64,000 nt of DNA from a virus (IMGVR_UViG_3300035544_000169), one strand, 5' to 3'. Numbered from the stretch's first letter, positions 42,402-58,851 are shown. Notes: generated by a model not told the origin, from the sequence alone. A program made the numbers and translations.

Positions 42402-45400
42402 TCAATTTAACTTTATCAACCAGCATTGCATTACTTTTATCTTTTTTACCTTCAAGCTTTAGCTTAAAACCTTTTTGGAATAAGTCGTGGTTTGCTCTGT
42501 AGGTATCTGGAAAAACTACAAGTTTAATTTTATTTTTATCTGTCTTAACTTTTGCAAAAGCCATCAGCTTATTTGACTTTCTGGTTTTAACCTCTTTAGA
42601 TTCTGTAATTATACCTTCTACCTCTAAGACCTCTCCACTTTTAGCAAAATCCCATTCAGAAGGATAGGTTAAAGATAAACCGATTGTGTCCATTTCGAAT
42701 TCAATAATTTCTTCTTTTGTGGGTTCTGGTTCGTCAAAAACTCCAGAACCTTCCTCATTTTTGAAGGCATCAAATAGTGACTGCCTCATCTGTCCAAACT
42801 CTTTAATAGTCTTGTAATCTACAAGTAATTGTTTTCTGTTTTTGCCGAATGAATCCATTGCCCCAGCTTTAATTAAAGATTCAAAAGCTGTCTTATTAAC
42901 AACTCTTGTATCAACCTTCTGGTACATATCATCTAGGTCTTTAAACGGTCTTTGATTCATTATTTCGGTGCTTGCTTTTTTACCTAAACCATCAATCGCA
43001 TTTAAACCCAGTCTTATCTTCCCGTTAACAGCTGTAAAGCGCCCTTCTGACTCGTTAATGTCAGGAGGTAGTATATCTATCTTCTTTTTATAGCAGTCCG
43101 AGAAATAGTCCGTAATCGAGCTGTCAGAGCCACTCTTTGCTGCTTCAACACTCATAATAGCTGCATAGAACTCTGCCGGAAAATGGTATTTAAGGTAAGC
43201 AGTGGCATAAGATATTAATGCATAGCAAGCAGAATGTGATTTATTAAAGCCATAGCCGGCAAAATATTCGATTAATCTAAACATTTCATCAGCAAATTCT
43301 TCTGTGTGGCCATTTTCTTTAGCTCCTGCTTTAAACTTAACTTTCATTTTTTCTAATACTTTTATTTTCTTTTTTCCCATTCCACGCCTTAATATATCTG
43401 CCTCTCCCAAACTGAATCCTGCAAGCCTTCTAGCTGCAGCCATAACTTGCTCCTGGTAAGCCATAAATCCGTAAGTTTCTTTAAGGTCTTCTTCAAGGTC
43501 AGGATGTGGATACTCTATCTTTTCATTACCGTGCATTCTGTCAAAAAACTTTTCTACGATACCAGCTTCTAGTGGTCCAGGACGACCGAGAGCTAAAATA
43601 GCGATGATATGCTCGAATTTTGTCGGCCTCATTTTCTTTAAAAGCCTTTTAAAAAGCTGTGATTCTACCTGAAAAACCCCGTTGGTATCAGCCTTCTGAT
43701 AGATGTTTTTATATACATCTTTATCATCAAGAGGTAAATCCCAGATATTTTGTACTGTAGGTTTATACTCTAAGCTATCATAATCTTTTCTGTTTTTGAT
43801 AAACTTAATAGCCTCACCTATGATAACAACAGTCTTTAGCCCTAAGAAATCCATCTTGAGCAAACCTAAATCTTCGCTATCGTGCATCTCTGTCTGAGTT
43901 ACATATGTTATCTCACCAGTTTGGCTGTTTTTGGTTCGTGCTAAAGGTGTATAATCATCAACAGGCTCTGGAGTAATAACAACCGCTGAGGCGTGTGTAC
44001 CTAACTGTCTAGGCTTACCCTCTAATTTTTGAGCTATATCGAATAGTTTTGGGTACTGTTCAGCATACATCTTAAGCTCTTTGCTTTCTTCAAGTGCTCC
44101 CTTAATTGAAATGCCTGGAGTATCCGGAAATGCCTTAGAAATTTCTTTATTCATTAGATTGTAATCATATCCTAATACTCTTCCTACATCTTTAACAGCT
44201 GATTTAGCACCTAATGTACCAAAGTTACAGATACTTGCTACATTTTCTTCTCCGTATTTGTCGATTACATACTGGATAACTTTTCCTCTATTTCCAAAAT
44301 CTATATCAATATCAGGCATAGCAGTTCTTTCAGGGTTTAAGAATCTCTCAAATAATAATCCATATTTAACAGGGTCCAAAGCTGTAATACCTAAAAGATA
44401 AGATAGAAGTGAGCCTGCTGCAGACCCTCTACCAGGACCAACAATAATGTTGTTATCTTTAGCCCACTGAACATAATCTTCAACAATTAAAAAGTATGCA
44501 GGATATCCCTTCATATTTATAACCTCAAGCTCCGTATCAAGCCGTCTGGCGTATTTATCCATATCAATGTCTTTTTTTACAGCCAACTCAAAAAGCTTCT
44601 TAAAGGCCCTTTCTTCAAGGTATGACTCAAGTGTATAACCTTCAGGAACTTCGAACTTAGGAAGTAGTAAACTACCTAAATCAAGCTCGACTGTATCACA
44701 TTTATCGGCAATTTTTACTGTATTTTCAATAGCACTATCTCTGGCATCTATAAAATCAGACTCTACACTCTTTGCAAAAAGCTGACTTTTTATCTCATCT
44801 TCACCCTTAAAATAGTATGAATCTCCATGAAATCTAAATCTGTCATTATCTTCAACTTTTGCCCCTGTTTGAATACATAGCATAACGTCATGAGCTTCGA
44901 TACTGTCTTTTTCTAGATAGTGCATATCTGATGTAGCTACAAGCTCTATATCTAATTTTCTAGCTAAATTTGCAAGCTTTGAGTTCATTACGTACTGCTC
45001 TGATACATCGTTGGCCATAATTTCAATGTAGTAATCATCTTCAAATAAGTTTTTATATTTTAAAGCTATTTCTTTAGCACTTTCAAAATCATTATTTTCT
45101 AAAGCCCTTGACAGCTCTCCCGCAAGGCAGGCAGAACTTACTATAAGTCCTTCAGAATGCTTTTCTAAAAGCTCAAAATCTATCCTAGGTTTATAATAAA
45201 AACCTTCTGTATTTGACTTACTCACCATTTTAAAGATATTTTTTAATCCTGTTTCATTTTTAGCAAGGATTATAAGGTGATGTCTTTTACCTTCTTTATC
45301 ATGCATGTCATTAGCTACATATACTTCAATTCCAAATATATGTTTAATTCCTTCTTCTTTGGCTGCTTTATAAAGCTCTACGAAATTGTGAATGTTGCCG

Positions 45401-45522
45401 TGGTCACTTATGGCAACAGCTTTCTGCCCCATTTCTTTTGCTTTTTTTACAATATCCTTTGGTGAATCAAAGCCGTCCAAAAAAGAGTAGTAACTGTGGT
45501 TGTGTAAATTAACATAAGACAA
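42370..45522 (-). CDS. dnaE: DNA polymerase III alpha subunit (DnaE-type, PHP domain), compact 1050 aa
   Basis: N-terminal PHP LHNHSYYSFLDG...ISDHGN, a polymerase core (…GRGSAAGSLLSYLLGIT..., PDIDIDF), and a C-terminal OB region. It overlaps recJ by 32 nt. Confidence 0.9.
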   Translation of the reverse strand: MSYVNLHNHSYYSFLDGFDSPKDIVKKAKEMGQKAVAISDHGNIHNFVELYKAAKEEGIKHIFGIEVYVANDMHDKEGKRHHLIILAKNETGLKNIFKMVSKSNTEGFYYKPRIDFELLEKHSEGLIVSSACLAGELSRALENNDFESAKEIALKYKNLFEDDYYIEIMANDVSEQYVMNSKLANLARKLDIELVATSDMHYLEKDSIEAHDVMLCIQTGAKVEDNDRFRFHGDSYYFKGEDEIKSQLFAKSVESDFIDARDSAIENTVKIADKCDTVELDLGSLLLPKFEVPEGYTLESYLEERAFKKLFELAVKKDIDMDKYARRLDTELEVINMKGYPAYFLIVEDYVQWAKDNNIIVGPGRGSAAGSLLSYLLGITALDPVKYGLLFERFLNPERTAMPDIDIDFGNRGKVIQYVIDKYGEENVASICNFGTLGAKSAVKDVGRVLGYDYNLMNKEISKAFPDTPGISIKGALEESKELKMYAEQYPKLFDIAQKLEGKPRQLGTHASAVVITPEPVDDYTPLARTKNSQTGEITYVTQTEMHDSEDLGLLKMDFLGLKTVVIIGEAIKFIKNRKDYDSLEYKPTVQNIWDLPLDDKDVYKNIYQKADTNGVFQVESQLFKRLLKKMRPTKFEHIIAILALGRPGPLEAGIVEKFFDRMHGNEKIEYPHPDLEEDLKETYGFMAYQEQVMAAARRLAGFSLGEADILRRGMGKKKIKVLEKMKVKFKAGAKENGHTEEFADEMFRLIEYFAGYGFNKSHSACYALISYATAYLKYHFPAEFYAAIMSVEAAKSGSDSSITDYFSDCYKKKIDILPPDINESEGRFTAVNGKIRLGLNAIDGLGKKASTEIMNQRPFKDLDDMYQKVDTRVVNKTAFESLIKAGAMDSFGKNRKQLLVDYKTIKEFGQMRQSLFDAFKNEEGSGVFDEPEPTKEEIIEFEMDTIGLSLTYPSEWDFAKSGEVLEVEGIITESKEVKTRKSNKLMAFAKVKTDKNKIKLVVFPDTYRANHDLFQKGFKLKLEGKKDKSNAMLVDKVKLIEGDFFKKAN

Positions 45523-45621
45523 ATAACTTCCTCCTTTCGTTTCGTTAAGTTTATTATATCATACTTCACTTGAATATTAAAGAAAAAGGTGTACTGTTAA
45601 AGTAACACCCTTTTTTATTAA

Positions 45622-46248
45622 TTATTTGTTCATTTTATATTTTCCATAACTATAATAAGGAACTCCATCATCTATTAAATCATAATCGTCTCTTTCTGAT
45701 ATGATTGCCCATGCATCTTCGTTTTCTATATGGTATCTAACACCAACCTTTTTAGCTTGTAGTTTACCTCTAGATATTTTATTAACTATTCCCTGATTGG
45801 TTACTCCTATCAAGAATGCTAGTTCATTTGCAGATAAATCTCTACCTCTATATAATTTTATTCTTGTTTCTGCTAACGTTATTAAAAATCCAATCCGGGA
45901 GTTTAAAAGACCCCTGTTTGTACCCTGCTGAACAAAGTATTTAGAAACGATGTTTACCTGAGAATCCTCTTTTAGTTCGTTTATTATTCCAGTTATCTCA
46001 GGAATATAGTCATACTGTCCTTTTATAAAGTAAAAGAGTTTCTTTATTTCTTTAGCAAAAGGAAAAGGAAAATCAATTCTCTTATTCTCTATTGGACAGA
46101 AAAGTTCCACTGGCTCTTTGTTCACCTCTATGTCTTTTGCATACTTAAGTTCAATCTGGATTAATTCACGGAAATTGTTTTCTATATCAGATATAATTTT
46201 ATTATAAAAACTTTTTCCTTTGAAATCTTTAATGCTGTATTCATTCAT
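45622..46248 (-). CDS. Hypothetical DNA-binding protein (C-terminal HTH)
   Basis: C-terminal LSANELAFLIGVTNQGIVNKISRG HTH-like segment. Confidence 0.35.
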   Translation of the reverse strand: MNEYSIKDFKGKSFYNKIISDIENNFRELIQIELKYAKDIEVNKEPVELFCPIENKRIDFPFPFAKEIKKLFYFIKGQYDYIPEITGIINELKEDSQVNIVSKYFVQQGTNRGLLNSRIGFLITLAETRIKLYRGRDLSANELAFLIGVTNQGIVNKISRGKLQAKKVGVRYHIENEDAWAIISERDDYDLIDDGVPYYSYGKYKMNK

Positions 46249-46346
46249 TTTTTTAAACCCCCTTTTTATTTAGTGTTATTCTCTAAACTAATCATAACAT
46301 CTGCAAATTTCTTTGTCAACAACTTTTTTTAGGAATTACTCTTATT

Positions 46347-46886
46347 TTATATGTGAATTTTTTCTTTTAACATCACTTCTAATTCTCTTTTTGCAATTTC
46401 TTTTTCATCTTTTTGCAAATTGTTTTTTAAGCAAAATTCAAAGTCTATATTTGAGTTTTTAATAAATAATGCTGATTTATAAATACACTTCCAATCTTTA
46501 CCTCCTGTTATAACAACGTTCTTGTGGTAGTTTAAAAAACTGTTCTTTAAAACTAGATATATTTTATCAACTAGATTCTCATTTGTTATTTTGTATATTT
46601 TTGAAACTTTAACCCCATTTGTATATAGTTTTACAACTATATTTTTATGATTGTTTTGCAAATATTTCAAAAATTGAACGAGGTCAGTTTGAAGCGTTGC
46701 CTCTCCGCCTCTTATGGTAATTTCCTTTAAATTTTTATAATTTATATCTTCTTTATTAAAATTTTCTTTTTTTATTTTTGGAACTAGATGCAAATCCTTA
46801 CAATCTGCACACCTTAAGTTACATCCCTGAACATAGATTGTTAACTTCTTACCGTCCTCTGAATATTCCTTCTTATAAATATTCAT
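46347..46886 (-). CDS. Small radical SAM activating enzyme (NrdG-like / QueE-like; CxxxCxxC)
   Basis: YVQGCNLRCADCKD cluster motif, ITIRGGEATLQ SAM-binding motif. 179 aa, the size of class-III RNR activases. Confidence 0.5.
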   Translation of the reverse strand: MNIYKKEYSEDGKKLTIYVQGCNLRCADCKDLHLVPKIKKENFNKEDINYKNLKEITIRGGEATLQTDLVQFLKYLQNNHKNIVVKLYTNGVKVSKIYKITNENLVDKIYLVLKNSFLNYHKNVVITGGKDWKCIYKSALFIKNSNIDFEFCLKNNLQKDEKEIAKRELEVMLKEKIHI

Positions 46887-46935
46887 TCCAAACCTCCTAA
46901 AATAAAAACCCCCAAAATTAATTGAGGGTTTAAGT

Positions 46936-48123
46936 TTATTTTTTATATTTTTCTTTTATTAAAAATGAGACCTGTATCCCGATTCCTATTAATGCTGCAA
47001 GTCCTACACCGCTAAATTTATAAACTGTTATTCCACTTAGTCCAAAAACTATCATCGTAGAAGCTATAAATGTATTCTTTGGATTTGTGAAATCGACTTT
47101 ATTTGAAACAAAAGTTTTAAAGCCTAGAGTTGCTATATTACCAAAAAGAATAATCATAACTCCTCCAACAACAGCTGTTGGTATTGACTGCAGAAAAGCT
47201 GCTAATACACCTACAAAACTAAATATAATTGCAAATATACCTGCATTTCTTGTAACTTTTGGGTCTCTTATCTTTAATAGACTAACTGCTGATGTTCCTT
47301 CTGAGTAAGTTGTATTTGGTACAGAACCTATAAAAGAAAGCATTGTGCCTATTCCATCAATTAACATCGTTCTGTGCATCCCTGGTGACTTATAATACTT
47401 ATTACCAGTTGCTTCACTTATTGCAAATACATCACCAAAATGCTCTATTGTTGGAGCTAAAGCAAATGGCAGTATGTAAATTGCTGCGCTTAAATTAAAT
47501 CTTGGAAGTGTAAACTCAGGCATACTTATTAGTGGTAGAGAAACAAAAGTTACCTCTCCTAAAAATAAAGCTGATATATATCCTGTTAAAATAGCTATTA
47601 AAACTGAATATAATCTTGTTATCCCTTCTGTGAACATCATAAAATATCCCGCTGTAGACAATGTTATAATAGCTAAAAGCCAATTACCTGAAGCCATATC
47701 TATACCTGTATCTATCAGGGTCAATCCTATCAGCATAATCATTGTTCCTGAGATTACCGGAGGAAAAAGTTTTTCTGAGATGAAGTCACTGCCTGTTTTT
47801 TTAATTACAAATGAAAATAAAACCTTCATAATTCCCGCAACACCTAATGCAAAGAAAACTGATGGCATATCCCATCTATCCTGTATATAAATTATTGGTG
47901 CTATATAGGCAAATGATGAGCCTAGAAAAATTATTGGTGCTCCATATTCACCTCTACCAAAATAATGCATAATAAGTGTAGATATTCCTGCTGTAAATAA
48001 TACTATAGATGTTGAGATACCCGTCAAAAGGGGTACCAAAATCGTAGCGCCAAAGCAGACGACAAGCATCTGTAAACCTAAAAGCCATGTGTTATTTCCA
48101 ATATTGAAATTCTCTGATTTCAT
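46936..48123 (-). CDS. NCS2-family nucleobase (uracil/xanthine-type) permease
   Basis: GLQMLVVCFGATILVPLLTGISTSIVLFTAGISTLIMHYFGRG...IIFLGSSFAYIAPII closely parallels the UraA/PbuX signature regions. ~12 TM segments. Confidence 0.75.
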   Translation of the reverse strand: MKSENFNIGNNTWLLGLQMLVVCFGATILVPLLTGISTSIVLFTAGISTLIMHYFGRGEYGAPIIFLGSSFAYIAPIIYIQDRWDMPSVFFALGVAGIMKVLFSFVIKKTGSDFISEKLFPPVISGTMIMLIGLTLIDTGIDMASGNWLLAIITLSTAGYFMMFTEGITRLYSVLIAILTGYISALFLGEVTFVSLPLISMPEFTLPRFNLSAAIYILPFALAPTIEHFGDVFAISEATGNKYYKSPGMHRTMLIDGIGTMLSFIGSVPNTTYSEGTSAVSLLKIRDPKVTRNAGIFAIIFSFVGVLAAFLQSIPTAVVGGVMIILFGNIATLGFKTFVSNKVDFTNPKNTFIASTMIVFGLSGITVYKFSGVGLAALIGIGIQVSFLIKEKYKK

Positions 48124-48144
48124 TAATATTGTGCCTCCTGTTTT

Positions 48145-48438
48145 TTATAACCAATTATATTTTTTTACGTAATAAAAATCTTCGCTTATACCACAATAAG
48201 GGCAAACCTTTACTTTCTTTTCTGGATGAGTTTTAAATTTTCTATTTTTGCCACATATAGGACACCATGTATAAATTATTCTTCTGTCTGGTTTTTTGAA
48301 ATCCTTGTGTTTGTAAAGTGTTACTTTTTTGTACTTCTTTTTTTGTTTTTTGTAATATTTTTCTGCCTCTTTTTTGCTTGTAAACTTTTCTTTTTCATAT
48401 TTAAATTTTTTCTTAGCTGTAATTACAAACCACTTCAA
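48145..48438 (-). CDS. Small basic zinc-ribbon protein
   Basis: CPICGKNRKF...CPYCG, Lys-rich N-terminus. Confidence 0.4.
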   Translation of the reverse strand: MKWFVITAKKKFKYEKEKFTSKKEAEKYYKKQKKKYKKVTLYKHKDFKKPDRRIIYTWCPICGKNRKFKTHPEKKVKVCPYCGISEDFYYVKKYNWL

Positions 48439-48611
48439 TTAATACCTCCCCCTTTAAGAGATATTTACAGTACTTTATCAAATGTTTTTCTGTCTTTCCA
48501 CTCTTCTTTTTTTCCTTTATTCCAATGAGAGATAGGTGTTAAAAACCCAACAACTCTGGAATAAACTTCACATCTAGTTCTTTTGCTTTCCATAATTACC
48601 ACCTCCTTTCT

Positions 48612-49328
48612 TTAATTTCTTATTCTTACATTATCAATATACTCTTCAGCAATGCTTTTAAATTCCTTTAACTTTTTTTCACTAAAACCATTTTTGCCAC
48701 AGAGTTCTTTATTATAAGTAGAATCACCTTTGAAATTCTGGATAAAATACCAGTCAGAATTTATTATCTGAGAGGCGATTTCTCTAATGTCCTCACTTTC
48801 ATGCATTCCTGGTACTACTGTGGTTCTGATTTCATACTGAACATCATATTTTTCTTTGGCCTGATATATATTATATAAAGAGCGTTTAATCTTATCTAAA
48901 TTAATCTTGCCTCCTAATGAGCCGTATCTCTCATATGGCATTTTAAAATCCATTGCTATATAATCTATAAGACCAGAAGACGCAAGGTATAAAAGTTTTT
49001 TAGGATAGGAACCGTTAGTATCAATCTTAACTTTTAATCCCATAGTTTTAACTTTTTCAAGGAATAATTTTAAATCATCAATATCCTGCATTAAGGGCTC
49101 TCCACCAGTAATAGTAACTCCATCTATCTTTCCTTTTCTTTCGTTTAGGAACATTAAAATTTCATCTTCGTTAATTAAATTTTCTTTGTCTTTTATATCT
49201 TCACTTATTAATGATGGGTTGTGGCAGTAAGGACATCGTAAATTACAACCCTGAGTAAATAAGATTGTAGAAATATGTTCTGGATAATCCATCAAAGAAG
49301 TCTTTTGTATTCCTGCAAATTTAATCAT
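48612..49328 (-). CDS. Glycyl-radical-enzyme activating protein family (NrdG/PflA-like radical SAM)
   Basis: FTQGCNLRCPYCHNP, GVTITGGEP, 238 aa. Confidence 0.65.
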   Translation of the reverse strand: MIKFAGIQKTSLMDYPEHISTILFTQGCNLRCPYCHNPSLISEDIKDKENLINEDEILMFLNERKGKIDGVTITGGEPLMQDIDDLKLFLEKVKTMGLKVKIDTNGSYPKKLLYLASSGLIDYIAMDFKMPYERYGSLGGKINLDKIKRSLYNIYQAKEKYDVQYEIRTTVVPGMHESEDIREIASQIINSDWYFIQNFKGDSTYNKELCGKNGFSEKKLKEFKSIAEEYIDNVRIRN

Positions 49329-49923
49329 TTAAACCCTCACCAAACCTTTTTACAAAAGCTTTTTCATCTGCTGGCATTTGCTCAAAGCCAATCTCCACTA
49401 ATCCATGTAGCCTTATAATTTCATAAAAAATAGCAATAGACTTTTTAAGCTCTCCATCATTATTTTTAATAGTGTAGTCCGCTATTTCTTTATTTTTTCT
49501 TTCACGAGTCTTAATCATGTGCCAAACTCTCTTGAATGCAGCTTTAAACCCATCTCTTTTATAAAGTCTTTTTGCAAGCTGATAGAATGGTACATCAATG
49601 TAGATAACTCTAACCTCATCACCATACATACCTTTCATTTGTCTGACTCCGTTTCTGTCCATAATTACAAATACAGAATCGTTATCCTCCAACTTTCTTT
49701 CAACTTCTCTTGTTGAGAGGCAGTAATAGTTGCCGGCGTATTCTGTAAACTCAGCTTTATTCATTTTGTCTATGTCTTTTTTGGTAACAAAATAGTAAGT
49801 CTCTCCGTGAACTTCTCCTTTTCTCATATCTCTTGAGGTGTGGGATACAAGCTCAGGTAATCCTGAGCCTTTACCGATTGCAGTTTTACCAGAGCCTGAA
49901 GGTCCCATTAAGATATATATCAT
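49321..49923 (-). CDS. gmk: Guanylate kinase-like nucleoside-monophosphate kinase
   Basis: GPSGSGKT P-loop, VSHTSRDMRKGEVHGETYYFV (GMP-binding HTTR...GE..G..Y.F motif). Confidence 0.7.
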   Translation of the reverse strand: MIYILMGPSGSGKTAIGKGSGLPELVSHTSRDMRKGEVHGETYYFVTKKDIDKMNKAEFTEYAGNYYCLSTREVERKLEDNDSVFVIMDRNGVRQMKGMYGDEVRVIYIDVPFYQLAKRLYKRDGFKAAFKRVWHMIKTRERKNKEIADYTIKNNDGELKKSIAIFYEIIRLHGLVEIGFEQMPADEKAFVKRFGEGLND

Positions 49924-49934
49924 ATTTAACCCCC

Positions 49935-50360
49935 TTAAATTTCTAATTCATTTTCTAAAATAGTTCTTGTCTTATCGGTTAATTTAATTTTTTCTTTATT
50001 ATTTAAGTAATACTCTTTGGCTGTGTCACCAAATTTCAAACTCATAGCCTCCCAGTCAACTACCATCTGCTTAATATACTTATATGGTATTTCTGCTGGC
50101 TCTTTTTTCTCGTCTCTTGACAGCCAGTACTGCCAGTGGTGTGGATTGTTATAATAGTGATGCCTCCAGGCCATTTCAAATTCATGTTTATGGTTTATTT
50201 TATTTTTGTAAAAATATTTTGCATATGGCAAGAACTCACTTCCACTTAGCTTAGATAAATCATGAGTAAAGGCATGGATAAACATACCCTTACTCACTGC
50301 AACTTTAAACACATTCCATTTGTGCTCTAAAACATAAAGTAAATATTTTAAAATATACAT
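49935..50360 (-). CDS. Hypothetical protein
   Basis: 141-aa ORF, His/Trp-rich. No confident motif. Confidence 0.4.
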   Translation of the reverse strand: MYILKYLLYVLEHKWNVFKVAVSKGMFIHAFTHDLSKLSGSEFLPYAKYFYKNKINHKHEFEMAWRHHYYNNPHHWQYWLSRDEKKEPAEIPYKYIKQMVVDWEAMSLKFGDTAKEYYLNNKEKIKLTDKTRTILENELEI

Positions 50361-50363
50361 TTA

Positions 50364-53300
50364 CTAACCCCCATATCCGTTTTCAGCATCACACTTAGGA
50401 CAGAATTCGTGTTCTCCTGGCAGATACCCATGTATTGGACAAATACTAAAAGTAGGAGTAATAGAGTAATAAGGAAGTTCATAATTTTCAGCAACTCTTT
50501 TAACAAACTTTTTGGTAGCCTCTATTCCAGGCATTCTCTCTCCTAGAAATAAATGTAAAACTGTTCCTCCTGTATAATTTTTCTGAAGTTCATCCTGCCA
50601 ATCTAAAGCTTCAAAAGGGTCGTCTGTAGCCCCTACAGGTAGCTGAGTTGAATTAGTGTAATACGGGTCAGCATCTTCTGTATAAACCCTTTTATCATTA
50701 GCAAAAACAGCTTCTTCTTTCCCAAACTTATCAAGGTCTGATTTGGCCAATCTATAGCTTGTTCCTTCAGCTGGAGTAGCTTCAAGGTTAAAAAGGTCAC
50801 TTGTTTCTTCCTGGTACTCCACCATTCTTTCTTTCATTTTGTGCATAACCCATTTAGTAAATTTAATAGCTTCATGTTCTGTCATATCTTTTCCTAAGAA
50901 ATTCATAACAGATTCATTCATTCCATTTAATCCGATTGTATTAAAGTGATTTTTCCAGTACTCTCCAAAACGTTCCTTAATACTTCTTAGATAAAACTTA
51001 GAATAAGGGTAAAGACCTGCATCTGTTAACTCTTCTAAAATTCTTCTTTTAATTTCTAAACTTTCTTTTGCAATATCCATTAATTCATAGACTCTCTCTA
51101 AATAATCATCAGTATTTTCTGCTAAAAGTCCAATTCTGGGCATATTAAGTGTTACTACACCGATAGAGCCTGTCATAGGCGATGAGCCGAATAAACCTCC
51201 TCCTCGCTTTCTTAATTGCCGATTATCAAGGCGCAGCCTGCAGTTATGAGTCAAGATTCCAGTTGTGCCAACCGTAAACATTGGTTCTCCATCTTTGACT
51301 TCAAAACAATAAGCCGTTTGTTTTTCTTTTAGTTTTTCAACTTTATCTATTTTCATCCACAGTTTTGAGTCTTTTTTAAACCAAACGTCGCCATAACTAT
51401 TTCTATTTAATTTGTAAAATAAAACAGCATAATTTGGATTATCTCCTAGTCTTCCATCACTTTTTTTTCTGTCATCAGTATAAACATTGGTTGTTGTTCC
51501 CAGAGTAGCAGCTAACATATTTAAGCTTTCTACCATTTTTTCTGATGATGTATAAATTCTATTTTTGTTTCCTCCATCAGTTTCATAATAGCCATCAAAT
51601 AATCCTGTTCTAAAGTGTTTGCTCATTTCAAAAACATTTGCTTTGAAGTATTTATTTAATGCATTATCCCCATCAACAAAACTTTCAATCATTGATTTTA
51701 CTGCTGGATTATATGTTGAAAGTTTAACTACATTATTTTTTTCTTCTTTTTCGGTAAATTTAGCCCCAAAAAGTTTAGTCAGTATTTCTTTTAAATTTTC
51801 AAGCACTGTTAGCTTGGTATTATTATTTAAAGAAAAAACAGTTCCTGTATTTTTATCACAGCTTCCGTCTCCTGCAAAAGCTCCTATTAAATAGCCAAGG
51901 TCATAAGTTCCTCCTTCGCCTTTAAAACTTGTTAAGCTATAAGGTAGATAATAACCTTCTTTTAAGTCTTTTCCTGACATTTCTTCAATATCTTTATTTT
52001 TATTTTTGATAACAAAATTTAAATGTTCTTCAGTCATCTTTATCTCATGCCCGTTAACCAATCTTACATTTATCATATTTTGATTTTCAAACTTATTGAA
52101 TCGACCTTCTATAAATTTACCATCAGAATAGACTAATATATCATCATTATCTTTAGTGTCATAATATGTGTGGTTAATTTGGGAGTATCTTACATTGTCA
52201 TCACCTGTTTTAACTAATACCTTTTCTTTTCCGTCAAGTGGGCACATTGAGCGAGCGTCTTCAGCTTTCATATCTGAGTTTAAAAAATTGGCAAAATATG
52301 GAATTCCGTACTTGGCTGTCATTTCCCAGACAGGGTCAAGGACCTCATTATCCCAATCAAAATCTGGAGTAATGTTATAAGTAGGAATAGGGAAAGAAAA
52401 TACTCTTCCTTTTGAATCTCCCGCCAGCATAACCTCAGCAAAAGCCTTGTTAATCATGTCCATTTCCTTCTGGAAATTTTTAAGCGGCATGTCATAAAGC
52501 ATTTCGCCACCAATAATAGCTGGGTCCTCTGCCATATTTGATGGACAAACTAAATCCATAGTTAAATTTGTAAAAGGACTTTGAAATCCAACCCGTGTCG
52601 GTACATTTAAATTAAAAATAAATTCCTGCATAGCCTGATAAACTTCATCATAATCAAGTCCATCATAAGATACAAACGGTGCAAGATAAGTATCGAAACT
52701 TGAAAAAGCTTGAGCTCCAGAACTCTCTCCCTGTAAAGTATATAAAAAATTAACCATTTGTCCTAAAGCAGTTCTGAAGTGTTTTGGTGGTGCCGACTCT
52801 ATCTTGGTTGACACTCCTGAAAAACCTTCCAATAATAAATCCTGAAGGTCCCATCCACAACAGTAATTACTTAAATTAGCAAGGTCGTGAATGTGCAAAT
52901 CTCCACTTACATGCTTTTCTTTAATGTGTTTAGGGTAAATTTCATTTAACCAATAATGGCCTGTCACCTCGCTTGCTATATGATTATTTAAACCCTGAAG
53001 ACTATAACCCATATTGGAGTTCTCATTAACTTTCCAATTGCTTAAATCAAGGTAATTATTAACTGTATCATTTATTCCATTGTATAGTTTTTGAGCATCT
53101 CTATACTTTTCATGCTGCTTTCTATATAATATATAGTTTTTTGCTATTTCATAATGTCTGTTTTCCATTAATTCATACTCAACAATATCCTGTAAAGTCT
53201 CAACATTAACAGAGTTTAATCCAGAACTAATCATTCCACTTATATTATCTTCTATTTCTTCAACAATATTATTTGCAACAAAATTCCAAAAATCTTCACC

Positions 53301-53405
53301 TTTTTTTTCTGCTGTTGCCTTCGCTGCTTTATAAACTGCATCTTTAATTTTTTTATTTTTATATTCTACTTTTCTTCCGTCTCTTTTAATTACATAAAAC
53401 GACAT
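50364..53405 (-). CDS. nrdD: Anaerobic ribonucleoside-triphosphate reductase (class III, NrdD) interrupted by a LAGLIDADG intein
   Basis: N-terminal ATP-cone-like region, core ...SMC|RLRLDNRQLRKRGGGLFGSSPMTGSIGVVTLNMPRIGL (cf. the E. coli MGCRSF...LGVVTLNLPRIAL), C-terminal Zn ribbon C...CPKC. The intein Cys...THN/C boundaries are present. Confidence 0.85.
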   Translation of the reverse strand: MSFYVIKRDGRKVEYKNKKIKDAVYKAAKATAEKKGEDFWNFVANNIVEEIEDNISGMISSGLNSVNVETLQDIVEYELMENRHYEIAKNYILYRKQHEKYRDAQKLYNGINDTVNNYLDLSNWKVNENSNMGYSLQGLNNHIASEVTGHYWLNEIYPKHIKEKHVSGDLHIHDLANLSNYCCGWDLQDLLLEGFSGVSTKIESAPPKHFRTALGQMVNFLYTLQGESSGAQAFSSFDTYLAPFVSYDGLDYDEVYQAMQEFIFNLNVPTRVGFQSPFTNLTMDLVCPSNMAEDPAIIGGEMLYDMPLKNFQKEMDMINKAFAEVMLAGDSKGRVFSFPIPTYNITPDFDWDNEVLDPVWEMTAKYGIPYFANFLNSDMKAEDARSMCPLDGKEKVLVKTGDDNVRYSQINHTYYDTKDNDDILVYSDGKFIEGRFNKFENQNMINVRLVNGHEIKMTEEHLNFVIKNKNKDIEEMSGKDLKEGYYLPYSLTSFKGEGGTYDLGYLIGAFAGDGSCDKNTGTVFSLNNNTKLTVLENLKEILTKLFGAKFTEKEEKNNVVKLSTYNPAVKSMIESFVDGDNALNKYFKANVFEMSKHFRTGLFDGYYETDGGNKNRIYTSSEKMVESLNMLAATLGTTTNVYTDDRKKSDGRLGDNPNYAVLFYKLNRNSYGDVWFKKDSKLWMKIDKVEKLKEKQTAYCFEVKDGEPMFTVGTTGILTHNCRLRLDNRQLRKRGGGLFGSSPMTGSIGVVTLNMPRIGLLAENTDDYLERVYELMDIAKESLEIKRRILEELTDAGLYPYSKFYLRSIKERFGEYWKNHFNTIGLNGMNESVMNFLGKDMTEHEAIKFTKWVMHKMKERMVEYQEETSDLFNLEATPAEGTSYRLAKSDLDKFGKEEAVFANDKRVYTEDADPYYTNSTQLPVGATDDPFEALDWQDELQKNYTGGTVLHLFLGERMPGIEATKKFVKRVAENYELPYYSITPTFSICPIHGYLPGEHEFCPKCDAENGYGG
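51243..52244 (-). other. Intein (334 aa, LAGLIDADG homing-endonuclease type) within nrdD
   Basis: Begins CPLDGKEKVL (Cys1), contains LGYLIGAFAGDGS (LAGLIDADG block), ends GILTHN followed by the extein Cys (CRLRLD). The spliced junction restores the conserved SM-CR motif. Confidence 0.7.
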
Positions 53406-53417
53406 TTTACTCCCCCT

Positions 53418-53792
53418 TTAAATTATTAACCGTTTATTTTTTACTTTCTGTTTTTTATTTATTACTATTTTTTTATCTTTAAGGTCTTCGTTTAAGTTTA
53501 CATTATAAAATCTTTTATAAAGCTTTGAGGCCTCATCATTTAGGCAATCTTTTACATTTTGGCCACATGTTTTATGATTATAAAGGCAGTCTGAACAAAA
53601 AACACTTATAGATTCTTCTTCACTTCTCTCGTTTTTATAATCATCACTAATATTTAAATTATTAATTTTACACTTTATAGCATTTTCAGTCCTGTTTATA
53701 ACTTTAGACAATTCTTTAGCTGAAAGCCTTGGATATTGCAGAAGATAAAACATTTCTGTAGCTGTCCACCTCTTAGAAGCCATACATATCAT
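53418..53792 (-). CDS. Hypothetical HTH-containing protein
   Basis: LSAKELSKVINRTENAIKCKI HTH-like segment, and a Cys-rich stretch CSDCLYNHKTCGQNVKDC. Confidence 0.3.
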   Translation of the reverse strand: MICMASKRWTATEMFYLLQYPRLSAKELSKVINRTENAIKCKINNLNISDDYKNERSEEESISVFCSDCLYNHKTCGQNVKDCLNDEASKLYKRFYNVNLNEDLKDKKIVINKKQKVKNKRLII

Positions 53793-53795
53793 CCC

Positions 53796-54632
53796 TTATT
53801 TTATATTTTTTAATCTTCTATAGATTGTCATCGGGGTTTTATCCAGCATATCTCCTATTTCTTCAACAGTTTTGTTATTAACTAAGTACTCATTAGCTAT
53901 TATTTTATTCTCTATGTTCTTATCTTTTATTTTTTCAAGTTTATTTCTGATAGTATTAATCCTTCTTGAAATTGATGATTTAGATTTTCCTAATCTCTCA
54001 CCTATTTCGTCTAAGATTAAATGGTCTTCAAATCTTAGTTTTAAAATTAACCTTTCTTCAATTGTTAAATCAGAAAATCTATTGTTGCATGTATTTCCAT
54101 TAACCCAATCTCTATCAATACTTGTTTTTGAAACTTCATCTTTTTCTGTGACTAAAAATGGATTTTGCATAGGCCACTTTTCTATATTATCTGATAAAGG
54201 TTCTGTCTTTACATTGTTTACTGTATTGTTTTTTAGTATATAAGGAAAATAAATTGACAAGAAATAATCAAATGGACTTTCAACTTCTTTTCTCTCATCA
54301 TATTCTGATATATCAAAAACATCTAAAGAAATTAAAAAAGATAATTTTACATCCTGATAGACATCTTCAAAATCATATGCTGAATATATTGCGTTAATAA
54401 CACTTACAACATTGGTTAATTCTTCTACTGAAGAGCTGCCTCCGGGCTGAAGAAGTCTAAGAAAGTTTTTAACTGAAGTGTTGCTTTTATAAGAGCCGTG
54501 ATAAATAAGCGAAACAAAGTTTTTTATGAATGCATCATACATGTCTAAAAGTTTTTGTCCTGACTCTTTATTTCCTTTTTTGTATTCTTCTATTAGCTTT
54601 AGTTTCTCACTCATCATAATTTCCCTCTTCAA
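53796..54632 (-). CDS. Phage-encoded sigma-70-family sigma factor (regions 2 and 4)
   Basis: C-terminal LILKLRFEDHLILDEIGERLGKSKSSISRRINTIRNKL (region 4 HTH), and a second HTH TVEEIGDMLDKTPMTIYRRLK. N-terminal region-2-like helices. Confidence 0.5.
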   Translation of the reverse strand: MKREIMMSEKLKLIEEYKKGNKESGQKLLDMYDAFIKNFVSLIYHGSYKSNTSVKNFLRLLQPGGSSSVEELTNVVSVINAIYSAYDFEDVYQDVKLSFLISLDVFDISEYDERKEVESPFDYFLSIYFPYILKNNTVNNVKTEPLSDNIEKWPMQNPFLVTEKDEVSKTSIDRDWVNGNTCNNRFSDLTIEERLILKLRFEDHLILDEIGERLGKSKSSISRRINTIRNKLEKIKDKNIENKIIANEYLVNNKTVEEIGDMLDKTPMTIYRRLKNIK

Positions 54633-54900
54633 AATCTTCTATTAACTTCCTCAAAGTATCTTCTATATTTCCATTGTAATCTCCAGAAAACCCATCATCC
54701 AAACCTTTATCAACTAACAAGTTTGTTTCCGCACTATCAAAAGGATTAAAAAATAAAAATTCAATCTCAGTCCCTAAAGTTTGACTTTCTTTGTCTACCT
54801 GTCCTAACATGCATAAAAAATCTTTAATATCCTGTGGGTGTTCAGAAAAAATTTCATCAAGACTAATTTCTACATCGAAATTATCAAAATTAAATATCAT
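54607..54900 (-). CDS. Small highly acidic protein (possible DNA-mimic/anti-restriction-type)
   Basis: 97 aa with a very high D/E content. No motif. Function is speculative. Confidence 0.3.
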   Translation of the reverse strand: MIFNFDNFDVEISLDEIFSEHPQDIKDFLCMLGQVDKESQTLGTEIEFLFFNPFDSAETNLLVDKGLDDGFSGDYNGNIEDTLRKLIEDFEEGNYDE

Positions 54901-54915
54901 TTATTATCACGCCTT

Positions 54916-55479
54916 CTATATTTTTTGCCCCTTTTTCTTATTAAACAGAAAAGAGAGTGCGATTCCTATAGCATCTGCTTTATCATTTTCTTTCTTAAAA
55001 TTTAACCCTAAATCAAAGTATTCATTTATTGCTTCTGTCATCTCTTCCTTTGAAGCTCTTCCATTTCCTGAAGCTATTTTTTTTACACTTGTAGGATAAT
55101 ATAAGTACATATCTTTTTGATACATCTCTGCTAAAAACATGCAAACCCCTCTTACATGACTTAATCTTTTTAAAGTTTTAGGGTTAAGAGAGCTGTATTG
55201 GTCTTCAATACTTATTATTTCAGGCTTATAAAATTTAATAATTTTTTCTAGCTGTTCATATATTTGATAAAATCTTTTTCTATCTGTCTTATCCGAATCT
55301 GTTTCTATATTGTCATAATCTAAAAGTTCTGGTTTGTAATCACCTTTAAACAAGCTCTCTTCTTTTTCAGGAGTTATTATATTTACAAGCTCATCTTCTT
55401 CATATTCTAAAACTGCCCAGCCTGTACTGGTTATACTTGGGTCAATCCCCATTATTCTCTTCTTCATCTTCTGTATCAT
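54916..55479 (-). CDS. ruvC: RuvC-family Holliday junction resolvase
   Basis: IMGIDPSITSTGWAVL (catalytic Asp in an RNase H-like fold), ...EDQY..., DKADAIGIA C-terminal acidic motif. Confidence 0.7.
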   Translation of the reverse strand: MIQKMKKRIMGIDPSITSTGWAVLEYEEDELVNIITPEKEESLFKGDYKPELLDYDNIETDSDKTDRKRFYQIYEQLEKIIKFYKPEIISIEDQYSSLNPKTLKRLSHVRGVCMFLAEMYQKDMYLYYPTSVKKIASGNGRASKEEMTEAINEYFDLGLNFKKENDKADAIGIALSFLFNKKKGQKI

Positions 55480-55602
55480 CTACTTCCTCTTTGTTTTTTT
55501 CTTCGTCTGATTCAGATTCTGATAAATTACCTGACCATTCTTCGCCAATCTTTAAACCTTTTTCTTGGTCTTCAATTATGTTAATTTTTTTGGACATCAA
55601 AA

Positions 55603-56346
55603 TCACCTCCCGCGCCAGTTATAACAAATCTCGCTGTATGGACAAGACTTGCATAAGTAGTTTATATTCTGCCAGTAAAGCTCCTGGTTGATAATCTCTG
55701 CAATATTATCAAGAGTTGCAACCATCTTCTTAAACTGCCAATTGCTTCTGTATATCTCCAAAAACTTTCCTTTTCTTACACTGTTATAAATAAACTTATC
55801 TTCTTTTTGCTTAAATATATTCCTGAATCCATAACTCATAAGAGAAAATTTAAGGTCATTATTTTTTCTAAATGTATCAGGATTATGAGAAGCATTACTG
55901 AAATACATTATATGCGTTTTTTTATCTACCATCTTTACCAGCTGCAAGTTGCAGTTTTTTATTTTGTGATTTTCAAGTTCAACATCAAACTTTTCATTTA
56001 CGGCTATCGGTATTCCTGGGTTATCCCTGTGTTTAATGTAAAACTTTTTGATGAACTCTCCCGGATACTTTTGTGTGTATCTCTTTTTTTGCTGGCTTGT
56101 TTTAAATTTTAGCAAATCTTCTTTTTTTGCAAATTCAGTTCCGTAAAAGTTTTTTAGTTCAGTTTCTTTAGGAACTCTCTCTTCTTCAAGGATTGTATTA
56201 TAAAAGAAGTAGATTGTGTCTGCTAATATATCGTCTATTACTTTCCTGCCCATGTAGCTTTCAACCTTGTCTTTTCTTTGGTGTTTGAAAAGGTATAAGG
56301 CGGGACATGCTAGAAAATCTAAGAGTGCTTGATATTCTATCTCCAA
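55603..56346 (-). CDS. Cas4/RecB-like PD-(D/E)XK nuclease with a 4-Cys cluster (weak)
   Basis: N-terminal Cys (FLACPALY) plus C-terminal CKSCPYSEIC, the pattern of the Cas4-family Fe-S exonucleases. The core is divergent. Confidence 0.35.
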   Translation of the reverse strand: MEIEYQALLDFLACPALYLFKHQRKDKVESYMGRKVIDDILADTIYFFYNTILEEERVPKETELKNFYGTEFAKKEDLLKFKTSQQKKRYTQKYPGEFIKKFYIKHRDNPGIPIAVNEKFDVELENHKIKNCNLQLVKMVDKKTHIMYFSNASHNPDTFRKNNDLKFSLMSYGFRNIFKQKEDKFIYNSVRKGKFLEIYRSNWQFKKMVATLDNIAEIINQELYWQNINYLCKSCPYSEICYNWRGR

Positions 56347-56397
56347 TTAATTCACCTCATGTTATGTTGATTTGTTTATCTTACTTCACTAAACTAA

Positions 56398-57063
56398 TTA
56401 TAACACAAATCCGTCCACTTTTAAAGTTTTTATCTTTTTTAATATTTTGTCGGTTGATTCTTTTATAGAATGAAGGCTTGAGTTTATTATTACTTTGGGG
56501 TAATCAAGCATTTTTAAATTGTGATTTTTAGTTAGAGTTATAAACTTTCTATTTAATCCGTCCCAATCATAATTGTATTTTTCCATAAAGGTATCTGCTT
56601 CATTACTGATAAATGGTTCGTTAGCTATCATTATAACGCCCATATCAGGAGTTGGAAAACCTAACATCTCTTCTATCTTAAATAAATCTTTGTAGTCTAA
56701 AACTCCCTTTTCCATACACTGATAGACAGCTGTTGAAAGGTCGTATCTATCACTTAAGATTATAGTGTTATCATCATTTTCTTTTTTAATCAAAGTCTTA
56801 ATATGTTCAGCCCTATCAGCCAGGAATATTAATGTTTCAGTTAAAGGAGATATTTTTTCATCTTTATCAAATAAAATCTTTCTTAACTTTAAACCAAACT
56901 CTGAGCCTCCCGGCTCTTTAGTTGTCAATACTCTCTTATTAAAGGAAGGAGAAGCCCTTAAGGCCTCTCCCACGCTTTCTAAGAGGGTTGATTTCCCGAC
57001 CCAATCGGGCCCTTCAAATACTATAAACAAACTAATCATCCTCTCTCTTTTCTGCTTCTTCAA
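56398..57063 (-). CDS. tmk: Thymidylate (dTMP) kinase family protein
   Basis: IVFEGPDWVGKST (the EGxDGxGKST P-loop), DRY-like SDRYDLST motif. Confidence 0.65.
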   Translation of the reverse strand: MKKQKRERMISLFIVFEGPDWVGKSTLLESVGEALRASPSFNKRVLTTKEPGGSEFGLKLRKILFDKDEKISPLTETLIFLADRAEHIKTLIKKENDDNTIILSDRYDLSTAVYQCMEKGVLDYKDLFKIEEMLGFPTPDMGVIMIANEPFISNEADTFMEKYNYDWDGLNRKFITLTKNHNLKMLDYPKVIINSSLHSIKESTDKILKKIKTLKVDGFVL

Positions 57064-57295
57064 TTACTTTACTCATTATTTTGCCAAAATCATCTCCGTC
57101 TTCTAAATCCTCTTTGTCAAAATGCATTACAAAGTCGGGTTCTCCAGCGAATGTATACCTGTATACTTCAAAGACTATAAAACCTGAAAGCAGTGTTAAA
57201 GCTGAGTATATTAATGAGTAATTAACAAAAACGACCATTGATAATATTCCGAAGATTAAACCTAAGACATAGCTTATTGTTGAAACATGCGACAT
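57032..57295 (-). CDS. Small membrane protein
   Basis: Two TM helices, with an acidic C-terminus. Confidence 0.35.
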   Translation of the reverse strand: MSHVSTISYVLGLIFGILSMVVFVNYSLIYSALTLLSGFIVFEVYRYTFAGEPDFVMHFDKEDLEDGDDFGKIMSKVIEEAEKREDD

Positions 57296-57336
57296 TAAAA
57301 AAATCTCTACATTGTCTAAAAATACTAGAAATTTAT

Positions 57337-57999
57337 TTATTTTACCACCTCCTGGTCATTTGCCAAAAAATCGGCAATATGTACTATCTTAAGAAAATCA
57401 TTCTCTTTTCTATATCTTAAAGATGGAACTAAGCACTTACCCCCTGTGTGTCCTTCAATCCCCTTCATTATCAAGTCAAAAGCATCTTTATCTTCTTCGT
57501 TTGCTATCAAGTATTCATAGTCTAAAAATTTAATTCTTGGCTGAATCAAATGCAAGTGAAAAATTTCATCTTTATCAGCAGTAGAAAATGAATCTAAAAA
57601 ACAATCATGTAAAAGTGTTGCTGCAAGTACAATATCACGCTTGTAATCGCTAATATCCCAAGCTTTAATTAGCTTTTTAGCTATTTTAAATGCCTTTTTA
57701 GAGTGGAGCACAGCTCCTCCGACACCTTCTTCATCTTCAGGAGTTTTGCCGTACTCTGATTTATTAGGCCTAAACCAAAATTCATTTGGTAAACTTTCTA
57801 AAATTTTAATAACTATAACTTTTACATTATAATTTTTGATATCATTTATTTCACTGCCAAATACTATATTTTTTTCTTCATCTGTTAAGTTTGTTATTCC
57901 ATAGATGTTTGTCATATTCTTAAGGTCAGCTTCTTCTCCTACTAAGTTTCCTTCAGCATCAACTAGTTTATCATTTACTAAGAATTTAAGGTAATTCAT
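57337..57999 (-). CDS. HD-domain phosphohydrolase-like protein
   Basis: H...LAATLLHDCFLD (H...HD...D pattern). Confidence 0.45.
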   Translation of the reverse strand: MNYLKFLVNDKLVDAEGNLVGEEADLKNMTNIYGITNLTDEEKNIVFGSEINDIKNYNVKVIVIKILESLPNEFWFRPNKSEYGKTPEDEEGVGGAVLHSKKAFKIAKKLIKAWDISDYKRDIVLAATLLHDCFLDSFSTADKDEIFHLHLIQPRIKFLDYEYLIANEEDKDAFDLIMKGIEGHTGGKCLVPSLRYRKENDFLKIVHIADFLANDQEVVK

Positions 58000-58020
58000 C
58001 TCTATCTTCCCCCAATAATT

Positions 58021-58338
58021 TTATATTTTATGTCTTCTTCTTACTTCTTTTGGCCAGCACTTATGACAAACAGAAGCTTCCCACTCTTTTTTTCTGTTCT
58101 GATTTACATTACCATTGTGGTCTGTCTTTACAAAAATAAGCTGTTTACCGCAGAACTTGCAGTATTTTGTGTGTCCACCATAATCTTTATCAACTCTGTC
58201 TTTTTTGTTAATTTCTTGGTTTGCTTTATCACTATTTTGTATCATCTTTTTCCCTCTCAATCTTGAACTCAGTCTCACAACTAGGACACTGGAGCTTTTC
58301 GTAATCTTCATCTCCGAGTTTATTTGAGAAAAAATCAC
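58021..58338 (-). CDS. Small zinc-ribbon protein
   Basis: CKFCGKQ...CHKC. Confidence 0.35.
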   Translation of the reverse strand: MIFSQINSEMKITKSSSVLVVRLSSRLRGKKMIQNSDKANQEINKKDRVDKDYGGHTKYCKFCGKQLIFVKTDHNGNVNQNRKKEWEASVCHKCWPKEVRRRHKI

Positions 58339-58498
58339 CGCATTCAGGACATTTATACAAATCTAGTTTCTCCACTTCACACTCATCTGTCGGTACATTT
58401 GCTGTAGCGTAGACCTTAAGGTCTATATCGCTCTGTTTGAATGTGTTGTTTATAAAACTCAACTTCTCCTCTACTTCTTTTTTTAAGTCCTCTCTCAT
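58232..58498 (-). CDS. Small zinc-ribbon protein
   Basis: CPECGDF...CPSCETEF. Confidence 0.35.
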   Translation of the reverse strand: MREDLKKEVEEKLSFINNTFKQSDIDLKVYATANVPTDECEVEKLDLYKCPECGDFFSNKLGDEDYEKLQCPSCETEFKIEREKDDTK

Positions 58499-58731: not shown

Positions 58732-58851
58732 CGGGTAAGCACCTCCTTAATATTAACACATAAACATATGTTTTGCAAGGGTCATAATCACAATTTCATC
58801 AAATTTTAAATAGCAATTTATTACATAATCCTACAAAAAAGTGAATAAGCT

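Follow-up and report, generated by a model that had tools for sequence, protein, structure and literature searches.

A phage anaerobic ribonucleotide reductase whose glycyl-radical loop is probably translated as a separate 42-residue peptide

We analysed a 64,000-nucleotide stretch of viral DNA (IMGVR_UViG_3300035544_000169; hereafter the window) that carries nrdD, the gene for the large chain of class III (anaerobic) ribonucleotide reductase (RNR). The radical loop with which NrdD normally ends is absent from this large open reading frame (ORF) and is instead encoded by a mini-ORF further downstream. The 1.76-kb gap between the two holds three intact genes, for a DUF5662 protein, a guanylate-kinase-like protein and the activase NrdG. 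Our reading, which we hold with high confidence, is that the phage encodes a class III RNR of two polypeptides in which the radical loop is translated separately. The two ORFs share out the anatomy of a normal NrdD seamlessly, the loop has translation signals of its own, and both the peptide and the division are conserved and recur in many genomes. The window adds one more case to a large group of split class III RNRs, and this group appears not to have been described in the literature.

The large ORF matched Pfam NRDD (E 9e-175) together with ATP-cone, Intein_splicing and LAGLIDADG_3, and scored well above cutoff with NCBIfam NF006126 (974 bits, cutoff 548) and TIGR02487 (492 bits, cutoff 326). 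Every NrdD sequence feature tested was present except a radical loop on the same polypeptide. The C-terminus reads ...CPIHGYLPGEHEFCPKCDAENGYGG (in a longer form, ...TFSICPIHGYLPGEHEFCPKCDAENGYGG) and then stops, and no R-x-x-G-[YF] motif occurs past the zinc ribbon of the 1013-residue ORF. Its alignment to T. maritima NrdD (4coi) stops at residue 609. The ribbon itself, C989-x2-H992 ... C1002-x2-C1005, is a predicted metal site and is conserved in relatives.

The same architecture is found throughout the nearest relatives of this chain. Its best 120 homologs, mostly from Halanaerobiales (Orenia, Halothermothrix, Halanaerobium, Iocasia), Synergistales and metagenome bins, were 62-87% identical to the spliced chain over the full length. 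All 120 of these closest homologs ended 1-117 residues past the ribbon (median 12), and the radical motif was absent from each. Their tails were variable and acidic, being net negative in 97% with a mean charge of -4.4.

A preliminary description of this locus had remarked on the short tail and the missing canonical glycyl-radical motif. Both observations hold, as the ORF is real and the motif search past the ribbon came back empty, although eight residues (DAENGYGG) and not seven follow the last Cys. The two sites it offered for a radical within the large chain are not supported. The GYL of CPIHGYLPG lies in CPxHGY, the first knuckle of the zinc ribbon, which is also present in contiguous NrdDs having their own downstream ...YSRVVGY... 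loop; the terminal NGYGG belongs to a tail that is not conserved among homologs. It had further proposed that the radical domain was either truncated or supplied in trans. Supply in trans is the option that the 42-residue ORF in the window supports, and truncation or loss is not. Finally, the two radical-SAM genes that it placed nearby are both present. The one at 48612 is a true NrdG, scoring 190.7 bits with TIGR02495 (cutoff 131), such that the partner activase is encoded close to both pieces. The one at 46347 is a diverged relative under that cutoff.

The missing loop was found among the small ORFs downstream of nrdD, in a 45-codon frame at 48465..48602(-) that holds ...CEVYSRVVGFLTPISHWNKGKKEEWKDRKTF... 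and contains the sole such radical motif in any frame of the window. Its ATG at 48593 lies 18 nt past the nrdG stop and is preceded by AGGAGG with an 8-nt spacer. The 42-residue product matched positions 531-562 of 562 in Pfam NRDD (E 2.9e-9; 36.6 bits, cutoff 26.2), which are the last 32 positions of that model, and positions 549-580 of 581 in TIGR02487. NRDD was its only Pfam match and all of its NCBIfam matches were NrdD models, with no match to the Gly_radical family of the pyruvate formate-lyase (PFL) type. The mini-ORF aligned to residues 610-645 of T. maritima NrdD and placed Gly16 on Gly621. As the large ORF ends at residue 609 and the mini-ORF begins at 610, a normal NrdD has been partitioned without gap or overlap. 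Gly621 is the radical glycine of T. maritima NrdD and is carried on a loop that reaches into the barrel as far as the finger loop (PMC4493059).

An alignment of 31 stand-alone peptides from several phyla revealed 14 invariant positions. These included C8, Y11, S12, R13, V14, V15 and G16, along with P20, W24, N25, G27, K28, E31 and R35. The peptide heads were net positive in 97% (mean +2.2). Acidic tails on the large chains and basic heads on the peptides are compatible with electrostatic docking, short of proof. We also considered whether Cys8 might be a zinc ligand that is peculiar to the split form and links its two chains, and rejected this: the Cys is kept in most contiguous relatives, including those with a four-Cys ribbon.

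Table 1. Features of the split nrdD locus, in coordinates of the window.
Feature	Position	Strand	Evidence or remark
nrdD large ORF	50364..53405	(-)	1013-residue precursor, ATG start; 680 residues once intein removed
ATP-cone, residues 4-99	53109..53396	(-)	PF03477, E 2.8e-20
LAGLIDADG intein, most likely Pro389-Asn721, 333 residues	51243..52241	(-)	Intein_splicing, LAGLIDADG_3 and intein_Cterm matches
Zinc-ribbon motif C989-P-I-H992 ... C1002-P-K-C1005	50391..50441	(-)	Motif kept in split and contiguous relatives
Acidic tail DAENGYGG, 8 residues	50367..50390	(-)	Followed by stop codon 50364..50366
DUF5662 gene, 141 residues, between nrdD and nrdG	49935..50360	(-)	PF18907, 7e-32; phrog_20637
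Guanylate-kinase-like gene, 200 residues, between nrdD and nrdG	49321..49923	(-)	PF00625, 2.4e-18; phrog_1815 guanylate kinase
nrdG, radical-SAM activase, 238 residues, CNLRCPYC cluster motif	48612..49328	(-)	TIGR02495 NrdG2; Radical_SAM, Fer4_12
Shine-Dalgarno AGGAGG, 8 nt upstream of mini-ORF ATG	48602..48607	(-)	Sequence
Mini-ORF, NrdD glycyl-radical loop, 42 residues, MESKRTRCEVYSRVVGFLTPISHWNKGKKEEWKDRKTFDKVL	48465..48593	(-)	Pfam NRDD, TIGR02487, structure alignment
GGG codon of Gly16, predicted radical glycine in RVVGF	48546..48548	(-)	Alignment to Gly621 of T. maritima NrdD

Homologs of the stand-alone peptide were also found on megabase-scale genomes. Halanaerobiales and Synergistota carry operons in which a tail-less nrdD (676-683 residues) is followed by nrdG (228-232 residues) and a mini-ORF (44-51 residues), as in Halothermothrix orenii (CP001098), Jonquetella (CM001376), Dethiosulfovibrio peptidovorans, Iocasia frigidifontis and an Orenia-like bacterium. 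Aminobacterium colombiense has the same operon, where the protein bears the NCBI species name and the locus itself is an assembly contig. A Shine-Dalgarno site and a start codon lay 5-11 codons before the conserved Cys at all 18 loci of this kind, five of which are copies of this phage's own contig. The tail-less NrdD was accompanied by the peptide in every operon examined.

A profile of the stand-alone peptides matched 4929 proteins in a representative library, and gene order (D, nrdD; G, nrdG; r, mini-ORF) was compared across genomes. The best 80 loci on one-genome-per-species contigs comprised 45 with contiguous nrdD-nrdG, 11 with D-G-r and 14 with the mini-ORF between nrdD and nrdG; one more was at a contig edge, and nine had no nrdD or nrdG in the locus. 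The 14 loci with a mini-ORF ahead of nrdG included small-genome (DPANN-type) archaea, Saccharibacteria, other candidate-phyla bacteria, Hippea and Bipolaricaulota. Among 80 viral loci with an NrdD of this family, 51 were contiguous, 26 were split and three lacked a glycyl-radical domain (GRD) in the locus. The split viral loci were arranged as D-r (16), r-D (4), D-r-G (3), r-G-D (2) and D-G-r (1, this phage). Such varied gene orders, with the mini-ORF in some cases several kb upstream, are difficult to account for if the piece does not act in trans.

In some phages (viral loci L227, L228 and L234) a single stop codon separates nrdD from a downstream radical-loop ORF in the same frame, and in close relatives that ORF overlaps nrdD by 4-7 nt in another frame. 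Some contiguous NrdDs have long linkers that resemble the window ORFs fused together, e.g. CPKCD..ENGY...KRTRCEVYS and ...CPKCDALIDNLQENLKKRTRCEIYSRVVGY.... A third homolog search, made with a ribbon-plus-loop chimera and aimed at full-length contiguous relatives, returned only fragments of <=160 residues.

Other ways of arriving at these two ORFs were weighed. When a C-terminal motif is missing, the most frequent trivial reason is a truncated ORF, and the preliminary description had raised a frameshift or an extension of the ORF at the end of nrdD; in Syntrophomonas palmitatica (L083) nrdD is indeed broken into four frames. Here, a sequencing or assembly frameshift, or a decaying pseudogene whose real protein is contiguous or not made at all, is excluded for practical purposes. 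A JGI contig (L001, IMG/VR UViG 3300033747_000022, 203,584 bp) from a different assembly is 98% identical in DNA to the window across 8.4 kb around nrdD and has identical ORF ends. An ENA contig of 203,621 bp shows the same gene layout, and both the 1013-residue and the 42-residue genes were called in the independent JGI and ENA assemblies. In addition, three intact genes separate the pieces, the large ORF resembles its homologs from end to end, and the closest 120 of these all end at the same place. It is also very improbable that the 1.76 kb is removed as a group I or II intron, or bypassed by ribosomes, to give a contiguous NrdD. The nrdD genes of T4 and Lactococcus phage 949 are intron-interrupted (PMC3653736) and this nrdD already hosts a mobile element, its intein. 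Against this, neither a permissive Rfam scan (E<=5) of 48000..53600 nor a scan of the whole window at the gathering score found a group I or II intron, and the DNA in between is filled by three closely spaced protein genes, the essential nrdG among them. The mini-ORF is furnished with a Shine-Dalgarno site and an ATG of its own, as at all 18 loci, and the order of the pieces varies among genomes to the point of placing the mini-ORF upstream of nrdD. Those same translation signals, with a strong ribosome-binding site ahead of the ATG in every case, speak against stop read-through of nrdG, which would yield an NrdG-loop fusion with activase and substrate in one chain. Both in the window and in Jonquetella, only a single TAA interrupts the shared reading frame of nrdG and the mini-ORF, as such a fusion would need. 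However, nrdG and the mini-ORF occupy different frames in H. orenii (L006) and L010, more than one stop lies between them in L011, and in many genomes the mini-ORF is located away from nrdG; we regard read-through as having next to no likelihood.

The most serious of the alternatives, although still unlikely, is that the large chain needs no peptide. An internal glycine, or a radical delivered by a radical-SAM protein, would then take the place of the loop and the mini-ORF would serve elsewhere, for example in re-arming a host NrdD. A second, diverged NrdG-like gene close by (46347..46886) and the solitary mini-genes of other phages, which carry the peptide without a phage NrdD, both favor this possibility. 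The internal glycines fare poorly, however, with CPxHGY present in contiguous NrdDs that have a normal loop and NGYGG unconserved, and tail-less NrdD and peptide were found together in every operon examined. To our knowledge, no glycyl-radical enzyme functions without a loop in its barrel.

Several points nonetheless weigh against a two-polypeptide RNR, or against its apparent frequency. The best 150 cluster representatives of the profile matches were all 48-107 residues long. A separate word-index protein search with the peptide also gave only short matches, but this search is biased to targets of query length and therefore overstates the stand-alone share; some short matches are moreover contig-edge fragments, and the share is not readable as a frequency. 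Where the mini-ORF lies directly against nrdD, as in some metagenome bins, an assembly frameshift or a recoded stop codon could account for part of the split calls. These calls describe single loci, and a genome so called may hold a second, contiguous NrdD. The case for function in trans is itself drawn from sequence. The model that AlphaFold2 gave for a fusion of spliced large chain and peptide (109-row alignment) was too poor to show docking, with a mean pLDDT (predicted local distance difference test) of 61.5 and values <50 in the C-terminal half and the loop, and was not used.

Glycyl-radical enzymes expose a buried loop to their activase, and oxygen cleavage of that loop destroys the enzyme. 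In the two-polypeptide RNR proposed here, the intein would excise itself and the large chain would fold into an ATP-cone, a catalytic barrel with the finger loop SMCCRL, and a C-terminal zinc ribbon. The loop, usually the last ~35 residues of one chain, would be made as a 42-residue peptide just downstream of nrdG. NrdG and S-adenosylmethionine would abstract a hydrogen from Gly16 of the peptide, possibly while it is free. The peptide would assemble non-covalently within the barrel, with Gly16 against the finger-loop cysteine in the manner of the attached loop of T4 or T. maritima NrdD, and the radical would move from Gly16 to that cysteine and initiate nucleotide reduction. In single-chain NrdD the glycine is buried and the C-terminal domain must move for activation (PMC4493059), a constraint that a free peptide would lift. 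A detachable loop may therefore give the activase easier access, and an oxygen-cleaved radical piece may be swapped without rebuilding the 680-residue enzyme.

Peptides of this kind are not confined to genomes with a split nrdD. When viral contigs were scanned with the peptide profile, 73 of the 80 best loci were stand-alone mini-ORFs with nrdD and nrdG absent within 6 kb on both strands. Their neighbors were phage genes, including terminase, tail proteins, portal and minor capsid protein. Contigs with solitary copies did not overlap with NrdD-bearing viral contigs except for this phage and one other. One such peptide recurs unchanged between a Synergistaceae bin (L013) and three viral contigs (L094-096). 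Many of the solitary viral mini-ORFs (L091-L169, e.g. L097, L102 and L168) share an N-terminal motif, NGDLxLDNGxxIP. A further set of proteins, from Desulfobacterota bins (L070, L073, L079, L088) and one viral contig (L156), is 130-225 residues long and combines an extra N-terminal domain, a single CxxC and an NrdD radical loop; nrdD and nrdG were absent within 4 kb of these genes, which may represent a larger kind of autonomous NrdD-type radical protein.

These distributions raise a broader possibility, which we advance tentatively and rate as slightly short of probable. NrdD-type mini-proteins of ~40-70 residues would be widespread, undescribed trans-acting radical cofactors, serving in one setting as an obligatory subunit of split RNRs and in another as solitary phage genes that re-arm or take over a tail-less or oxygen-damaged host NrdD. 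The hosts of the obligatory subunit may then include Halanaerobiales, Synergistota, candidate-phyla bacteria, DPANN-type archaea and many phages. By analogy, the solitary phage copies would relate to host NrdD as GrcA and T4 Y06I relate to pyruvate formate-lyase.

The large ORF is itself interrupted. As the preliminary description reported, nrdD is split by a LAGLIDADG intein, in agreement with the Pfam Intein_splicing and LAGLIDADG_3 matches; the insertion is at the finger-loop cysteine. The boundaries given there (334 residues, a Cys1 start and an SM-CR junction) are probably off by one. The finger loop reads SMCCRL in all 69 intein-free homologs matched by the junction-anchor pattern, including a syntenic phage relative (P0093, on L252). 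A start at Cys388 would leave SMCRL, a finger loop one residue short. A start at Pro389 restores the invariant SMCCRL, including the thiyl-radical finger-loop cysteine, and is thus the most likely, giving an intein of 333 residues flanked by Cys388 (-1) and Cys722 (+1) and inserted between the finger-loop cysteines (SMC/CRL, with the slash marking the insertion point). Two LAGLIDADG motifs, YLIGAFAGDGS at intein position 117 and GLFDGYYETDGG at 213 (LAGLIDADG_3, E 3.7e-7), predict a nuclease. A search of PDB sequences with the intein gave no significant match.

The window, a close relative (P0092) and three diverged alleles (P0104, P0155 and P0164, with inteins ~55% identical to that of the window) share the pattern RSMC-P[LI]xGxE[KR]VL...YC[FL]EV...G-x-L-T-H-N-CRL. 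In Halanaerobiales, another intein family is inserted one position further upstream (SM/CL[HFY]P[ED]E...FYDIEL...NITHN/CCRL); it starts with the usual Cys1, and block F position 4 is Asp. Block A of this family is in register with the window intein only if Pro is taken as position 1. These mini-inteins (P0112, P0125, P0145, P0168 and others; ~180-310 residues) are unrelated to the window intein, such that two intein lineages have hit adjacent peptide bonds of one catalytic loop (SM/CCRL vs SMC/CRL). Homologs of 1126 and 1090 residues carry more inteins elsewhere in NrdD.

These features make it possible that the window intein is class-3-like. The class 3 prototype, the mycobacteriophage Bethlehem DnaB intein, begins with Pro1 and has a block F Cys 21 residues before the terminal Asn (PMC2807308; see also PMC7664689). 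The window intein would share Pro1 and has the same spacing, with Cys312 at block F position 4 (A-Y-C-F-E-V, the Cys being invariant in all alleles) and Asn333 corresponding to Cys320 and Asn341. It also resembles the prototype in His73 at block B position 10 (M-T-E-E-H, with Thr70), in Thr at block G position 5, in its Thr331-His332-Asn333 end, and in its LAGLIDADG endonuclease domain, size (333 vs 341 residues) and phage setting. It differs in having Asn75 at block B position 12 (H-L-N-[FY]-V, invariant in four alleles) where class 3 has the Trp of the WCT triplet, in a +1 residue that is Cys and not Ser or Thr, and in a host protein that is NrdD and not a helicase or terminase. From class 1 it is set apart by Cys312 at block F position 4, where the neighboring class 1 inteins have Asp (FYDIEL). 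If the assignment is right, this would be a class-3-type intein in a new host protein, placed exactly between two catalytic cysteines.

The intein also bears on the host. An Orenia-like bacterium (L253, ENA ERZ27245721), from the same ENA study as phage contigs ERZ27245726 and ERZ27245719, has an nrdD-nrdG-miniORF operon, and its nrdD is interrupted at this very site by an intein that is likewise of the Pro1 type; the bacterial and phage inteins are 55% identical. The phage NrdD is 69% identical to that of Orenia. Together, the shared intein type and this NrdD identity hint at a Halanaerobiales host, and the sequences suggest intein exchange between phage and host.

The window is part of a phage of ~203.6 kb. 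Its G+C content is 29-39%, and every gene from ~26 kb onward is on the minus strand; the sign of the GC skew flips at the same place as this coding-strand switch. No tRNA genes were found in positions 1..64000, no Rfam families of any kind at the gathering score, and no match by megablast of 48100..53500 to the phage collection. A promoter and terminator scan of 48000..53900 gave counts equal to those in shuffled sequence and was uninformative on operon structure. Of the genes within the split, the DUF5662 gene starts 3 nt past the nrdD stop and likewise comes after nrdD on L252, a syntenic phage contig that is more distant, while the guanylate-kinase-like gene scored 81 bits with TIGR03263, under the cutoff of 160.

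Beyond the mini-ORF, the next gene is a 97-residue ORF (48145..48438, minus strand) that is rich in lysine in its N-terminal half and has a CPICG...CPYCG zinc ribbon; it is present in the sister contigs and has no PHROG or Pfam family above threshold. A 395-residue membrane protein of the xanthine/uracil permease family (46936..48123, minus strand; Pfam E 2.6e-66) sits between the mini-ORF cluster and the second radical-SAM gene. The latter (46347..46886, minus strand) encodes 179 residues with a CNLRCADC cluster motif and a GGE motif, is kept in the sister contigs, and is NrdG2-like (70.4 bits, cutoff 131) with ~33% identity to the true NrdG. Permease, guanylate kinase, thymidylate kinase and RNR together suggest a nucleotide-supply module in the phage. 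Further along, L001 has ~2 kb (10953..13151, vs 45391..45640 of the window) without counterpart in the window. Part of this is a ~1.1-kb insertion near codon 43 of the gene for DNA polymerase III alpha, dnaE (42370..45522 in the window), and it carries a LAGLIDADG-type ORF (L001 12074..12907), such that a mobile element in dnaE is present in one and absent from the other of two 98%-identical contigs.

Should the loop act in trans as proposed, a free peptide of ~5 kDa would be a minimal native NrdG substrate for structural and kinetic work, and a radical cofactor supplied in trans would exist outside the formate-lyase class. A cheap repair route for an enzyme needed in anaerobic DNA synthesis would also be suggested. 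There are consequences for annotation, as tail-less NrdDs pass as complete and the mini-genes are labelled whole reductases or hypothetical proteins. In phages, the solitary copies suggest an auxiliary gene of a new kind, one that acts on the nucleotide supply of the host.

A literature search, which left out most subscription journals, found no description of a split or truncated NrdD or of an NrdD-type radical mini-protein. A June 2026 review names the formate lyases as the only class of glycyl-radical enzymes with spare-part proteins (PMC13450708). In this phage the split RNR comes with two additional inserted genes and a class-3-like intein.

The closest known system is the canonical single-chain NrdD with NrdG, as in T4, E. 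coli and T. maritima. The family is the same, with an ATP-cone, finger-loop Cys, zinc ribbon, YSRVVG[YF] and an adjacent NrdG. The canonical enzyme carries its R-V-x-G-[YF] loop on the same chain, ~12-20 residues past the ribbon. Here, in contrast, the large chain ends 8 residues past the ribbon, the loop is a separate product encoded at 48465..48593, and nrdG and two further genes lie between them.

In function, the nearest counterparts are the pyruvate formate-lyase spare parts GrcA/YfiD and T4 Y06I. They too are small stand-alone radical-loop proteins that presumably enter a barrel, and Y06I is phage-encoded. GrcA is of the PFL type, has ~127 residues and rescues an oxygen-cleaved PFL that has its own loop, whereas the peptide here is of the NrdD type and has 42. 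As the partner large chain is without a loop of its own, the peptide would be obligatory and not a spare.

The split class II RNR NrdJa/NrdJb of Pseudomonas aeruginosa and Thermus phage phiYS40 is likewise encoded by two genes, with the break near the C-terminus and close to the zinc-finger region (PMC9669993, PMC3653736). It belongs to another RNR class, uses adenosylcobalamin in place of a glycyl radical, and has a folded domain as its second piece, making it a structural analogy only. Lastly, nrdD is the phage RNR gene most often interrupted (PMC3653736). In T4 (group I intron) and Clostridium phage c-st (intein) the interruption is spliced to give one chain, and the nrdD of the window is also intein-bearing. 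Unlike either of these, the separation of the loop shows no splicing element.

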